Assembly: GCA_951406725.2 (NCBI GenBank)
Contig: OX597815.1
Span: forward strand, 129,704,001-129,768,000
From: Octopus vulgaris
Lineage: Eukaryota
Length of the DNA: 64,000 nt
Direction: 5' to 3'
Positions 34,150 through 63,080 of the stretch are shown piece by piece (within the stretch, counting starts at the first letter, position 1; each line of letters opens with the position of its first letter). Below the pieces are notes generated by a model that worked only from the letters and a program-made list of their open reading frames with translations, was not told where the DNA came from and did no database searches. A program made the translations under genes and the position numbers.

Positions 34150-35010
34150 AGTACTGCTGGTTCTGGTCTAGCAGAGGTACTAGGCTGGACTGCTTCAGAT
34201 GCATGCAGAACAATGGAACTGTACTGCATGCATTCATAGAGTGTCCAAGCTTTGCTGGTATGTGGAGTTATGTCAAACAGATGTTGTTGCATCATCATCA
34301 TTATCGTTTAACGTCTGTTTTCCATGCTGGCATGGGTAGGACAGTTTGACTGAGGTCTGGAGAGCCAGCGGCTGCACCAGGTGCCAATTTGATCTGGCAA
34401 TGTTTCTACAGCTGCATGCCCTTCTTAACGCCAACCACTGAGAGTGTAGTGGGTGCTTTTTATGTGCCACTGGAGTCTGGCAATAGGCTGAGTCCATCAT
34501 AAGGATTGTTCTACTACCCATCTTTAACAACAGAAGGTAGGTGAAAGAGACTGTATGGTAGTCAAGGTCAAAAGGATTTAGAAAAGACACCGTTTTTGAT
34601 CACGTCCTCAATTTCTTTGGAAAAGAAAGTTGAGGAAGAAGAGAGAAGTGCTCTTACTAAGTGAATTTGTCAAAGGGTAGATGATTATGGCAAAAATGGT
34701 CAGAGGACTACAGTTAATCTAAGCATGTGCCTGTAGATTGGAGAATAACAGTTGGGTGAGGACTTGTGCCCTTGGTGGATGGGGTGATCCTAGATCTGTA
34801 TGATTCCTTCAATGACCCTAGTTGGAAGTTCTTCTGTATCAGGAGGGCAGCACCATAGATGTGTTCACATATTTTGTATATGTCTATCTCATTTTACCCT
34901 CCTCTCCCTTTCTTTCTCATCTTCTATGTAAACCCTCACACAAATTGTAAACTGTGCTCGTAATGTACTCCTTCATCAGATATGCCCTGCCACATGGCAA
35001 ACAAAAGAAA
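34150..35010 (+). mobile_element. L1/Tx1-clade LINE 3' remnant split by an RTE-tail insertion
   Basis: DCFRCMQNNGTVLHAFIECPSFAGMWSYVKQML is the C-terminal CxxC..T..H....C......W zinc finger of L1/Tx1 ORF2. It resumes after the 34290-34470 insert with VKETVW*SR. Confidence 0.72.
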
Positions 35011-44939: not shown

Positions 44940-45680
44940 TGAGAAAAGGAGAGAAAAAGAGAGTGAAGAGAGGAAGAGAGAGAGTGAAGAGAGGAAGATA
45001 GAGAGTGAAGAGAGGGAGAGAGAGAGTGAAGAGAGGGAGAGAGAGTGGAGAGAGTGGAGAGAGAGAGAAAGAGAGTGGAGAGAGAGAGAAAGAGAGTGGA
45101 GAGAGAGAGAGAAAGAGAGTGGAGAGAGAGAGAGAAAGAGAGTGGAGAGAAAGAGAGAAAGAGAGTGGAGAGAGAGAGTGAGAGAAAGAGAGTGGAGAGA
45201 GAAAGAGAGTGGAGAGAGAAAGAGAGTGGAGAGAGAAAGAGAGTGGAGAGAGAGAGAAAGAGAGTGGAGAGAGAGAGAGAGAGAGAGAGTGGAGAGAGAG
45301 AGAGAGTGGAGAGAGAGAGTGGAGAGAGAGAGTGACAGAAAGAGAGTGGAGAGAGAGTGTGGAGAGAGAAAGAGAGTGGAGAGAGAAAGAGAGTGGAGAC
45401 TGAAAGAGAGTGGAGACAGAAAGAGAGAGGAGACAGAAAGAGAGAGAGTGAGAAAAAGTGGAGAGAGAGAGAGAAAGAGAGTGGAGAGAGGGGAGAGAGA
45501 AAGAGAGTGGAGAGAGAGAAAGAGTGGAGAGAGATAGAAAGAGTGGAGAGAGAGAGAAAGAGAGTGGAGAGAGAGAAAGAGAGTGGAGAGAGAGAAAGAG
45601 AGTGGAGAGAGAGAAAGAGAGTGGAGAGAGAGAAAGAGAGTGGAGAGAGAAAGAGAGTGAGAGAGAGAGAGAAAGAGAGT

Positions 45681-45733
<53 letters not shown>

Positions 45734-45948
45734 GAGAGAGAGAGTGAGAGAAAGAGAGAGTGAGAGAAAGAGAGTGGAGAGAGAGAGTGTGGAGAGAGAG
45801 AGTGTGGAGAGAGAAAGAGAGTGGAGAGAGAAAGAGAGTGGAGAGAGAAAGTGGAGAGAGAGAGAAAGAGAGTGGGGAGAGAGAAAGAGAGTGGAGAGAG
45901 AGAAAGAGAGTGGAGAGAGAGAAAGAGAGTGGAGAGAGAGAAAGAGAG

Positions 45949-45997
<49 letters not shown>

Positions 45998-46263
45998 TGG
46001 AGAGAGAGAGAGAAAGAGAGTGGAGAGAGAGAGAGAAAGAGAGTGGAGAGAGAGAGAAAGAGAGTGGAGAGAGAGAGAGAGAAAGAGAGTGGGGAGAGAG
46101 ATAAAGAGAGTGGAGAGAGAGAGAAAGAGAGTGGAGAGAGAGAGAGAAAGAGAGTGGAAAGAGAGAGAGAGAAAGAGAGTGGAGAGAGAGAGAGAGAAAA
46201 AGAGTGAAGAGAGAGAAAGAGAGTGAAGAGAGAGAGAAAGAGAGTGAAGAGAGAGAGAGAGGA
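44940..46263. repeat. 1.3-kb polypurine (GA)n-derived compound satellite
   Basis: Almost pure purine on +, with the recurring unit (ga)n-aa-gagagtg. It generates spurious ER-rich and SL-rich ORFs. Confidence 0.97.
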
Positions 46264-58200: not shown

Positions 58201-59978
58201 ATGTGGATGATGTCAGACTAGAGAAAAAAATAATAAAAATCTAATTTGGTTGACGAATGAATGATAAAAGTATAAATAATAGTATTTATAATAATTGTGA
58301 TGATGATGTTGGTAGTGATGATGGTGGTGGCGGTGACAGTAGCGCCACTTCCATAATTCCACTCAAACCAGATCCCATGTCTGAACATGCAGTCGACATC
58401 AACATAAAAACGTCGAGCCAATAAAATGGAGCGATACATTTAGCGAAGAAAGCTCATAAGCTGTACACACGCATATATACACATCCGTTATACATATACA
58501 AACACGGTTTTTTTCTCTACTTCTACCGCACCGAACCGACTGAGTTTGTAGAATTGTACTTCGTTATCTGTCAGTTCTCGCCAAGTGAATAAGGCTAACA
58601 GGGATTAGTAAATCCTACTGCTAGTATTGTCTCTGAAGACTGGGTCATTAGATTCACTTGAGCAACAGTCTGATTGAGAATAATGTTTGTTTATTGCCTC
58701 GAAACTTTAAACTGCTTTTAGTTGTATTTATTTGACTTTCCTAACGTAATAAAGCAGACATTGCGAATGAGAGGTGTCTTTTAACTTGATCAACTGTTGT
58801 CCCTCCACACACACACACACACACAAAGATGCTGAAGAAGAAGAGTGAACGACAATAATATATTTTTATTAGAACATATTAATTTCTTTTTAACTTAGTA
58901 CTCGGATAAATTAGGCTAGTGTATCACTGGTACTTAAATAGCTTTGTGCCAAAATTTGAAACCAATATTATTGGCCTTAGAAAGACCCAATAGCGGTGAA
59001 TTGATAGAATCGTTAAAGAATCGGCGGAAGCGGGCTATAATGCCTTTCTGTATTCCTTATGATATTCAGTTCAAATTCTACCAAGATCAGTTGTTACCTT
59101 TTATTCCTTAGGTGGTTAATAAAGTAAAACTCCAGAGGAGTGGAATATTAAAGTGACGGACCAAGCACTTTGTCGCATTTGTTTCCGCTCTTTGCTATCC
59201 GACAACAACATATCTCACTCAACCTATTTCACTAATCCCAGAAAGCTGGAAGTTTGCTTTGTCAAGATTTGAATTTGCAACGTAAGATAAAGATAACACC
59301 ATAAATCAGTGATGTTAATTACTAAGTAACGACACCTGCACCAAAAATAATGGTTTAGTGACAACACATTTAATGTGTGATCATTAAATGCCCGAAAAGA
59401 AATACAAATGCATCAAGGAAAAGACTAATTAGTATCAATGGCTTATAATTCAGACAAGCATGGGAAATAACTGCAAACATGTTTCGTTATTATTATACCT
59501 CTTCAACACATTACAGTGGCGAATGCCGGGGTATTGCCATAGTTGCCCAGACAACACCCTTTCTAGTCGAGCCGACACCAAAAAAGTCGGGACCAAGGTT
59601 TATTTCCAGCAGTTTCACAGCATTACTGTTTCATATGCATATGGTCTGCTACAGCAAAGTTAGAATACATAAAAATGTGTCCATTTGTAACGAATCGCGT
59701 TTCCCACCTTATATATTGTATTTTTTCGAAACTTTTGGGCAACATAAATAAAAAAAATCCTGAACCCCACTCCCGCATTATACACTTCACAGTATAAGCC
59801 ATATAATAAGGATCTGATTTTTTTATTAGCTATGCGGGCTAACATAGAAGTAACAAAACAAAACATGTGGAACATAAAACATATATAAAAAATAGAAATG
59901 AATATTATAATGTATGAAGACGTGAATATGAAAAATGGAAATGGAACCACTCGCCCCACTTACGAATGGCCTCATTTT

Positions 59979-60377
59979 CTACTTTTTAAATCTTGAACCT
60001 TCCAACACATCGATACCTGTTTCCTCTAACCACCTATCGTACGTAGTAAAGTCTGGGGATGAGCTCCAGCTGCAGTCCACCCCACAAAAATAAAATCCAA
60101 CCATATATTCTTGTATTTTTTCCTCCCGCTTCTTATCTGGTATTACATACAAGTGATATTCCTCCACGTTATCATACCCCTTAGTTCCAATGCACTTTAT
60201 GTCCCATTCCGCCGAATCCCGTAGCAGTTCGTCGCTAAGCAACGTACAAATCCTACACTTTTTCCTTCTCTCTTTTGACTTGGGGGAGGGGTTTGGGGTT
60301 TCTTTGTATGTGTTTACCTCTTGTTTTTGTGTCGGATGGGTCCGAGAGGGTGTGGTGGAATGGGGTTTACAGTTCAC
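59979..60377 (-). CDS. Frameshifted C-terminal continuation of the ORF1-like protein (unrecognised domain)
   Basis: 132 open codons overlapping the end of the upstream ORF in the +1 frame, next to an A-rich run. It has no ATG start of its own and contains a P/T/K-rich linker, then CRIC and an aromatic-rich domain. Confidence 0.55.
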   Translation of the reverse strand: MNCKPHSTTPSRTHPTQKQEVNTYKETPNPSPKSKERRKKCRICTLLSDELLRDSAEWDIKCIGTKGYDNVEEYHLYVIPDKKREEKIQEYMVGFYFCGVDCSWSSSPDFTTYDRWLEETGIDVLEGSRFKK

Positions 60378-61302
60378 TTGCCCTTTTTCTTTTTCTTCCT
60401 GTCACATTTTCCCATTTATTTTTTTCTATTTCTGCTACTTGGTTTTCTTTTTCGGTTACTTCCTTTCTGCGGCTCTCTTCTATCTTCTCTTCCGTATTTT
60501 CTGGTCGCTTTTCCTTTGGTTTTCTTGGCTTTGATGTACATTCTGCTCTTATGTGTCCCTTCAGGCTACATTTAAAGCAGCGTGGCACTCTTCCTTCCAC
60601 CCTGACAGTCATAATTGTTTCTTTCATAATTATTGTTTCCGTAATCTTTTCCATCGTTTCTTTTGAACCCTGGACTATCATCTCCAGTGATTGACCTCTC
60701 CAGTTGACGCAATCTTTTTTCTTGACCTGGAGTACCACTATGTTGTCCTCATTACTAAAGTGGACCGCATCTGCCATCCAGGTCACATCAATCTCTGGTG
60801 GGATTCCTTCAACCAAGACCCTTGTTGCTCTCATGCCTCTATACATGGGCAAAAGCACCACTTCATCACTCCGAATTGTCGACGCTGCATGTTTCCTTGC
60901 TGCTGCTGCATTACAAAACCTTACTTCTACTGTTCCAAATGTTGAGCCTCTAGTCAGGTATATTATGTCTTCCCAAATCTGCTTTAACGCCTTTTCTATT
61001 TGTTCTGTCGTGGCGACGTTTATTCTTTCTTTATTTATCGAAAAGTTTCGATAGATTATCGCCTTTTCCCTTATTCCGTTTTTAACCTCTTGCGGGGGCG
61101 ACAGCTTCACTTCGAACCCATCTCGGTTCATTTCTTCTTTGTGTCTTCCGAATTCCTTGATATCCACTTCTGTTTCCTTGCACCTTGCTGCATCAGTAAA
61201 ATTCCCCTTCTCTTTTATCAGTTTCTGGTCCATTGTCTTAACTGCCTCCAACAACTCCTCGGACGATGACATGTCTGAATAACTATAACTGTCTTCAGAC
61301 AT
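60367..61302 (-). CDS. ORF1/Gag-like nucleic-acid-binding protein (RRM-like region plus CCHC zinc knuckle)
   Basis: Intronless 311-codon ORF with GTVEVRF...RATRVLVEGIPPEI (typical of L1/Tx1 ORF1) and RCFKCSLKGHIRAEC (CX2CX4HX4C), then a K/E-rich tail. Confidence 0.8.
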   Translation of the reverse strand: MSEDSYSYSDMSSSEELLEAVKTMDQKLIKEKGNFTDAARCKETEVDIKEFGRHKEEMNRDGFEVKLSPPQEVKNGIREKAIIYRNFSINKERINVATTEQIEKALKQIWEDIIYLTRGSTFGTVEVRFCNAAAARKHAASTIRSDEVVLLPMYRGMRATRVLVEGIPPEIDVTWMADAVHFSNEDNIVVLQVKKKDCVNWRGQSLEMIVQGSKETMEKITETIIMKETIMTVRVEGRVPRCFKCSLKGHIRAECTSKPRKPKEKRPENTEEKIEESRRKEVTEKENQVAEIEKNKWENVTGRKRKRASEL

Positions 61303-61953
61303 TCTTCAACCAGCTGTCTCTTCTCTTACGTGAAGAGAAAGCACAAAAAACCATCTAAATAAACCTACCGACACAAAATTACAACTGGCACACACTGATT
61401 CGACTTTGGGATCGATCGGTAGCGGACAAGAAGCAATAATTAGGATGGTACACGTGTTATTGCGAAAAAGTAGCACACACACACACACAGCGTCATACGC
61501 ATGAAAAACTCTGCCTTTCATTATTTCGAGGTCAATAAGTACTAGTTGAATACTGGGGTCGATACAATTGGCTCACCCCTTTCTCCAAAATTTTAGGTTT
61601 TGTGCCTTTAGTAGAAAGGATTATTTTGTATTATAAGTAAATATAACGCGCAGTTTTATTACCTTCACAGTATTTACCGTTTTACAAAACTGAACTAGAA
61701 AACTGGACAAAACAGAGAACACAATTGAAAAAATAGAAAATTAAAAAACAAAACAAAACAATTCACGACATTGGGTTGAAAAGTCAGGGACGCAGGGAAA
61801 CCTTTCTAATGGCCATTGAGACACGCCGGTGATGGCGAGGCTGATGCGCTGGAACAGCCAAGCGCCCTCACGAGACTTACCAGTTATCTCTGCATGGCGG
61901 GTTGCCAGTGAAAACAGGAATCTCGCAGTTAGTGTTCCGACCCCACCAAACGT

Positions 61954-62019: not shown

Positions 62020-63080
62020 ACAGTTTCGGGACAGGGGCGTAAGTCGATTACATCGACCTTATTACTGAACAGGTATTTATTTTATCGACCCCGAAAGAAT
62101 GAAAGGCAAAGTAGACCCCGGCGCCATTTGAACTCAGAACGTAAAGATGTACGAAATGTCGCTATGCATTTTGCTCGACGTGCTAACGGGTCGAATCGTT
62201 AGTATCTGCAAACGGTATTTCGCCCGTTTTGGAAACGGCGGCGGGCTGGCAGAAACGTTAGCACGCCGGGCGAAATGCGTAGCCGTATTTCGTCTGCCGT
62301 TACGTTGTGTGTTCAAATTCCGCCGAGGTCGACTTTGCCGTTCATCCTTTCGTACTGGGGTCGATGTAATCGAATTAATACCCATGTCTGTCCTTGTTTG
62401 TCCCCTCTGTGTTTAGCCCCTTGTGGGTAATAAAGAAATAGGCATTTCGCTCGGCTCTTTACGTTCTGAGTTCAAATAACGCAGAAGTCAACTTTACCGT
62501 TCATCCTACTGGGATCGAGAAGCTAAAGTACCAGTCAAATATTGGAGTCGCTGGTATCACTTACCTCCTCCCCTAAACTAGAAAGCTTTATTTGGAACGA
62601 GTATTTGGAAAACATCTGAAGAAAATATTTACTTATGAGAGTTGTCTTTCCTTATTTATTTCCAAATCAAAAATAGTGTTCTGCGATGAGCAAATGGATC
62701 TCCGTCGGTTTCGACGATAAGTTTTCAGTTGATAGCCCAACTGGACTATATGCTCGCTGCTTATTGAACAATCGTGCAAGTGGCAGATTATCCCACAGAC
62801 GTGTGTTCTTTTAGAGCAAGCTTCTCACAGAATCCGAATGATATTGTTTGGCAAGGCAAGGCGGCAAATTGGTAGAAACGTTAGCACATCGGGCGAAATG
62901 CTTAGCCGTATTTCATCTGTCTTCACGTTCTGAGTTCAAATTCCGCCGAGGTCAACTTTGCCTTTCATTCTTTCGGGGTCAATAAATTAAGTACCAGTTG
63001 CGTACTGGAGTAGATCTAATCGACCGGCCCTCCTCCTCCCCCAAAACTTCGGGCCTTGCACCTAGAATAGAAAAGGATAT
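62020..63080. mobile_element. Cluster of CpG-intact SINE family B copies in both orientations
   Basis: Minus copy at about 62020-62190; plus copies at 62237-62570 and 62860-63078 with intact A/B-box-like motifs (ctggcagaaacgttagc, gttcaaattcc). Confidence 0.8.

Follow-up and report, generated by a model that had tools for sequence, protein, structure and literature searches.

The question raised by the locus described here is why an open reading frame (ORF) of the kind found as ORF1 in long interspersed nuclear elements (LINEs) stands in the Octopus vulgaris genome with no reverse transcriptase (RT) behind it. The locus lies on the minus strand at positions 59815-61430 of a 64,000-nt stretch of contig OX597815.1 (129,704,001 to 129,768,000 in assembly GCA_951406725.2), the whole of which is hereafter called the window and supplies the position numbers. 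The initial annotation, made from the sequence alone, had left two explanations, a "half-LINE" family mobilized in trans or a domesticated RNA-binding retrogene. The former is the one that has held up: copies are numerous and have common ends, a target-site duplication (TSD) is confirmed by an orthologous site lacking the insertion, tail and target recur in a LINE of the helper type, and no copy runs on into ORF2. The best explanation, with a probability of about 0.88, is that the locus is an old copy, frameshifted and off target, whose family is non-autonomous, encodes ORF1 alone and likely owes its copying to the endonuclease-reverse transcriptase of a target-specific, Tx1-like LINE of the L1 group possessing the same 3′ tail and insertion site.

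Boundaries and structure of the window copy

The element is one member of a multicopy ORF1-only retroelement and has 59 DNA matches in its own 2.8 Gb genome. Among the fetched loci (L numbers), identity is 91-93% for siblings L002-L005 and 87-88% for L006, the near-full-length siblings reaching the tail about 740 nt past the zinc knuckle. Homology begins at 61430 rather than at 61397, the boundary initially proposed. The first 17 nt (61414-61430) match the bases that immediately precede the cut in the HINE-like repeat described below and likely mark the start of the donor RNA; the off-target copies L001 and L024 both begin there, with unrelated outer flanks. Next comes a target-like head (61384-61413), a diverged look-alike of the insertion site with similar diverged heads in siblings L002, L005, L006, L012 and L032 and a related one in the full-length helper-type LINE L091, followed by the remaining 5′ untranslated region (UTR; 61303-61383), which in the alignment is about 40 bp shorter than that of the siblings.

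The flanks of the element, namely the decayed 17-nt sequence at 61431-61447 and the sequence at 59796-59814, which starts with GATCC as the canonical target does, match each other with an anchored score of 9, attained by 9 of 5000 random flanks. The orthologous site is empty in organism E, where a contig of run X14 joins 59803 to 61482 with one TSD copy, one flank contig differing from the window in 24 of 420 letters. The window copy is bounded by a 17-19 bp target-site duplication, as the empty site confirms. Contigs of X7 bridge both element junctions.

The summed X14 contig depth over 59815-61430 is far above that of the flanks despite the empty site, a hint at most that the family is more abundant in organism E.

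The intron-free 311-codon frame (ATG at 61302, TAA at 60367, minus strand) was recovered as first described, together with its single CX2CX4HX4C zinc knuckle (residues 242-255, 60538-60579), the AATAAA signal (59827-59822) and the lack of RT. This frame, 60367-61302, covers the N-terminal part of ORF1 with two predicted RNA-binding domains, the knuckle and a charged linker, and is ended prematurely by a frameshift. The second, overlapping frame does exist (60401-59979, minus strand, 140 codons from stop to stop) but is not a separate ORF, being continuous with the first in the siblings. In comparison with them, the window copy has private deletions of 3 bp at 61261 and of 5, 12 and 36 bp at 60375, 60356 and 60339, respectively, and the bases missing from the latter three are present in L002-L005. 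An uninterrupted frame leads into the C-terminal domain from the knuckle in L015 (391 aa), L005 (261 aa) and L020 (215 aa), and from the linker in L004 (199 aa). Since the frame is split only in the window copy and through its own deletions, the family protein has about 460 aa, of which the two apparent ORFs are the separated parts. The three-deletion cluster (60339-60375) is spanned by contigs of X1, X2 and X7 with no gaps, and the lesion is therefore old.

The C-terminal domain (59979-60260, approximately 93 aa) is now out of frame, and the 3′ UTR (59815-59978) contains a tail common to the helper-type LINE, according to a tail alignment with L031 and a tail census, the AATAAA signal and A7. 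What had been taken for an A tail is this A7 run (59824-59818), which includes the AAA of the signal itself and is equally short in sibling copies. The exceptional intactness first ascribed to the element has to be qualified in view of the frameshift, although the 311-codon frame does give a Pfam signal, as none of the remaining frames of the window does (0 of 75 at E ≤ 1e-4).

Target-site specificity

The family is target-site specific. Most siblings are followed by one and the same sequence, which is the middle of a non-coding HINE-like repeat of about 400 bp. A 25-mer from this site has 657 exact occurrences in the genome (the reversed control has none), and all 20 fetched target sites are empty. 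Twelve exact matches to the family tail include seven at the HINE-like site, two where a different ORF1-only copy has its target-like head, and three elsewhere, with ORF2 upstream in four of the twelve. The same site is occupied by another ORF1-only family (L033, L034) and by 5′-truncated inserts, each with its own TSD of about 21 bp: a LINE (L031), an insert of about 43 bp (L037) and L141. The window copy and L010 lie off target; L010 has its own 21-bp TSD (0 of 2000 in the null set), and both TSDs start with GATCC like the canonical one.

According to the accessible part of PMC4067079, HINE/DINE-1-like elements are non-coding, end in a 3′ palindrome, carry a short microsatellite and subterminal inverted repeats of 12-15 bp, and have flanks rich in T. 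In 21 empty copies of the target repeat there are AAAC repeats (17 copies), an end motif (12) and 5′ and 3′ subterminal motifs (nine each), which on visual comparison agree in 10 of 13 positions; a hairpin is also seen by eye, and the repeat has no coding capacity.

Close to its 5′ end, the HINE-like repeat has another site, which bears opposite-strand ORF1-type elements (L002, L005, L029 upstream, L031 and L091), those of L005 belonging to a different family from those of L002 and L029. A third target repeat is used by another subfamily (L017, L018, L022), with a tandem copy upstream in L017. L032 (G000:C4:163453715-163456745), at the canonical site, is a non-coding derivative of the window family with an internal deletion of about 250 bp.

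Candidate helper LINEs

The helper is likely to be an L1-group LINE of the apurinic/apyrimidinic endonuclease (APE)-RT type sharing its 3′ tail, head and insertion site with the family. The LINE-A copies L031, L060, L061 and L065 combine ORF2 sequence with nearly the same tail and the same HINE-like site, and L091, a full-length LINE of this type, starts at that site with a related target-like head. The LINE-A pieces are 44-75% identical to the related LINE L050, the ORF2 of which matches APE, RVT_1 and zf-RVT in Pfam, has human L1 ORF2p as its closest solved structure (E = 3.5e-71) and a Ciona pol-like protein as its named relative. A sister LINE (L066, L067) uses a different target, which it has in common with the ORF1-only copies L007, L008 and L020.

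L050-L054 form a near-intact L1-group LINE family (in L050, ORF1 has 534 aa and ORF2 1138 aa), and L050 is flanked by (TC)n, like Kibi. A short, very abundant repeat, SINE-like (resembling short interspersed nuclear elements) by appearance, occurs in the window at 62385-62440 (plus strand) and at about 17159 and 16974 (minus strand). It ends in the same tail of about 45 nt as the LINEs and the ORF1-only elements, and therefore may be moved by these LINEs as well.

ORF1 phylogeny

The best surviving alternative is that the window element arose when a present-day autonomous LINE recently lost its ORF2 by a simple internal deletion. Its 3′ tail and target are the same as those of LINE-A and its 5′ head is related, and the sampling of LINE ORF1s is incomplete, all of which would fit such an origin. 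The ORF1 core, however, is only 35% and 41% identical to the LINE-A ORF1s of L091 and L097 and 32-43% identical to all 11 LINE ORF1 cores located upstream of ORF2. No copy was found to continue into an APE-RT ORF2, the continuation by which the half-LINE reading could have been overturned, and none of the 20 next-best ORF1 matches is directly followed by ORF2.

Out of 140 ORF1 copies in the fetched loci, 120 had at least 150 aa, and removal of 43 near-duplicates left 77 rows for tree building. In the quick tree, a 51-row clade including the window copy contains none of the 11 LINE ORF1 rows (SH-like approximate likelihood ratio test support, 97), and in a more careful tree of 32 hand-picked rows the corresponding 20-row clade has a support of 98/97. 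Grouping of the window family with the LINE-A ORF1s is rejected by the approximately unbiased (AU) test (p-AU 1e-82). ORF1-only relatives extend to identities as low as about 40%, none of those sampled having an ORF2, and the tree contains a second, separate ORF2-less group. Judging by these trees, the window copy lies within a deep clade of ORF1-only elements in which no ORF2 was sampled, and a recent deletion is improbable.

One locus in which ORF1 is followed by a piece of RT, L103, was considered and discarded, being an ORF1-only copy joined within the 3′ UTR to the middle of an ORF2.

Decay of the window copy and selection on the family

The second explanation offered initially, a domesticated RNA-binding retrogene of the ZCCHC3 or L1TD1 kind whose 311-aa protein is kept by the host, has several points in its favor. 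The first 311 codons are free of stops, with one or two stops in this region in four of five siblings; the insertion and its deletions are common to three related samples; and the ESM Atlas places ORF1 near a ZCCHC3 cluster (0.90), a likeness extending to the two predicted RNA-binding domains and the knuckle. The private changes of the window copy in the first frame, on the other hand, comprise 23 non-synonymous and five synonymous ones, a ratio of non-synonymous to synonymous rates (dN/dS) of 1.2, the frameshift costs a domain conserved by the family, and the insertion is absent from the orthologous site in organism E. ZCCHC3 and L1TD1, the latter derived from ORF1 (accessible part of PMC4161310), are conserved host genes, whereas the element is multicopy rather than a single conserved locus, frameshifted and neutrally evolving, which makes domestication a very poor candidate.

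The window locus is an old, decayed fossil copy. Between families, ORF1 is under purifying selection, while the window copy seems to decay neutrally. The core dN/dS of the intact ORF1-only families compared is 0.10-0.18 (two pairs saturated), and that of the C-terminal domain is 0.35-0.39 in deep pairs and 0.6-0.76 in close ones.

As a third explanation, one old insertion might have been amplified by hitch-hiking in a rolling-circle HINE/Helentron, as the common HINE-like position and similar 5′ junction of most siblings would suggest, but this is largely refuted because the flanks of filled sites are no more alike (82-83%) than filled and empty ones (81-82%) while the inserts are 91-93% identical, and in addition the site has taken up inserts of several families as well as truncated ones, every one with a TSD, and the window copy and L010 sit off target with TSDs of their own.

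Proposed mechanism

Under the preferred reading of a non-autonomous family copied by a Tx1-like LINE, transcription of a donor residing in a HINE-like repeat would start about 17 nt before the cut, and the donor RNA would be coated or packaged by the element's own ORF1 protein. The ORF2 protein of the helper would then recognize the tail, nick the target at GATCC, reverse-transcribe the RNA in place and leave a duplication of about 20 bp; target-primed reverse transcription by ORF2 is established LINE chemistry. The target-like head may help 5′ joining and recreate the landing site, so that later insertions would stack head-to-tail. As for the window copy, the helper presumably cut a chance GATCC-like site.

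Several points weigh against this reading. Only 127 of 19,866 protein candidates were scored and loci were chosen by similarity to the window copy, so sampling was partial and window-biased and a LINE with a closer ORF1 could have escaped it. An intact LINE-A copy was not found. We infer trans-mobilization from the common tail and target, and the helper is called Tx1-like for its behavior. The TSD of the window copy is degenerate (15 of 18 aligned columns). The private dN/dS is 0.26-0.6 and not 1 in four of five siblings, the counts being small, and in the C-terminal frame of the window copy it is 0.37, on seven versus four changes.

Protein domains

In Pfam, zf-CCHC is matched by 26 of 50 family members, with the match of the window copy (E = 0.011) falling below the curated cut-off, RRM_1 by one of 50 (E = 0.019) and Transposase_22 by none of the 50. 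In the ESM Atlas, ORF1 has as neighbors CCHC/RRM clusters from arthropods (0.92) and the ZCCHC3 cluster mentioned above, which has two RNA-binding domains. The RRM-like block reported initially is thus modestly supported by the single RRM_1 match and the Atlas clusters. For the ORF1 core, the databases contain no relatives other than two proteins of Octopus bimaculoides.

The C-terminal domain is conserved across the sub-clade. An AlphaFold2 (AF2) model of this domain from sibling L015, built with a 30-row alignment, has a predicted local distance difference test (pLDDT) score of 85 and a β-α-β-β-α-β arrangement, the single-sequence run having given 34. No Foldseek match was obtained at E ≤ 0.001, the best VIA Z score is 4.6, among generic ferredoxin-like folds, no family was found in Pfam or the ESM Atlas, and the best hit of the sequence search in the PDB (E = 0.21) was treated as chance. 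LINE ORF1s and other families likewise end in a domain of similar size. Profile-profile comparison detected no homology among the C-terminal domains of the window clade, the young family, the LINE ORF1s and the second ORF1-only clade, with a best probability of 5% and reversed controls of up to 1.7%. The domain is family-specific and its predicted fold is a common ferredoxin-like one, the lack of matches being no proof of a new fold; as to the novelty initially claimed for it, no known family is matched but the predicted fold is generic. Binding of RNA by this domain is a guess.

Young relatives and arrays

A young ORF1-only relative with about 42% protein identity to the window family is represented by many stop-free copies (L038-L049, L055 and L142-L161, e.g., G000:C2:138769004-138791872), at least 176 by exact 25-mer matches. 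The copies form head-to-tail arrays with a period of about 1.7 kb and up to 14 units, which are interstitial, located on many contigs and nested in other repeats. Units are mostly 97-100% alike, the nearest unit lies in another array for 23 of 33, and one array contains a local three-unit duplication. The 3′ ends of eight out of ten arrays lie on one site within ORF1-like sequence, three of these via a near-intact L043-type LINE, and seven out of ten have a common flank at the 5′ end.

The target does not track the ORF1 tree: the window family (family A), the L033/L034 family and LINE-A are found at one site, and the sister ORF1-only copies L007/L008 and the LINE L066/L067 at another. It is possible, albeit doubtful, that the ancient ORF1-only lineage is a satellite parasite of Tx1-like LINEs. 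The lineage would then retain its ORF1 but exchange its 3′ tail and 5′ head, and with them helper and target. As the head mimics the target, it would build chains at the helper 5′ end and within ORF1-like stretches of related elements. Should this be the case, such chains could interfere with the helper LINEs or seed silencing.

Two mosaic units (L042:2204-3697 and L044:7259-8752) have a synonymous distance of 0.77 (saturated) in the core versus 0.20 in the C-terminal part, which suggests 3′ module exchange. Like the distribution of targets over the ORF1 tree and the young arrays, these mosaics hint at such a satellite lineage.

Comparison with known elements

Non-autonomous LINEs that retain ORF1 are listed in the accessible part of PMC5786205 as HeT-A (Jockey), HAL1 (L1) and Ag-Sponge (CR1). 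HAL1 is a non-autonomous element of L1-group origin with ORF1 only (PMC5753468, PMC5786205, both as far as accessible), like the window family, the ORF1 of which is, however, of the type with an RNA-binding domain and CCHC knuckle and not of the Transposase_22 type (types as in PMC5203782); furthermore, the present family is target-specific and array-forming, and its host is an invertebrate. HeT-A forms head-to-tail arrays with autonomous partners (accessible part of bioRxiv 10.1101/445429), an arrangement likewise seen here, but with an L1-group partner and with arrays that are interstitial and nested in repeats rather than located at chromosome ends.

In the Tx1 clade, Tx1 inserts into Tx1D and Kibi into (TC)n, and a further parallel is SINEU-3, which forms tandems in Mariner-N4_AMi; features described are a fixed position within a non-autonomous DNA transposon, tandems around the TSD and a 5′ extension that stems from the target of the donor (accessible part of PMC4494074). 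The present elements agree with these cases in all three respects, and L050 lies in (TC)n, whereas the passenger here is protein-coding and insertion is into a HINE-like repeat or, in the young family, into ORF1-like sequence.

The accessible part of a paper on octopus LINEs reports an RTE element and does not mention Tx1 (PMC9115989). No literature description of the window family was found in a search which did not extend to Repbase Reports, Dfam and most subscription papers, so library names may exist. The family is a new, target-specific form of non-autonomous LINE of the HAL1, HeT-A and Ag-Sponge kind.

The family matters more than the fossil locus, as it is target-specific and array-forming, has maintained ORF1 by purifying selection across deep splits and includes young members, beside near-intact helper LINEs. 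It offers a natural system for studying what makes a passenger retain an ORF1, how the tail sets the choice of helper and whether such elements restrain their helpers. ORF1-only, knuckle-bearing "genes" in the octopus annotation may be mobile elements.

Other features of the window

A 42-aa remnant resembling the zf-RVT region of LINE ORF2 is located at 34191-34316 (plus strand), and the region 45001-46000 shows extreme G/A skew and is probably a simple repeat.

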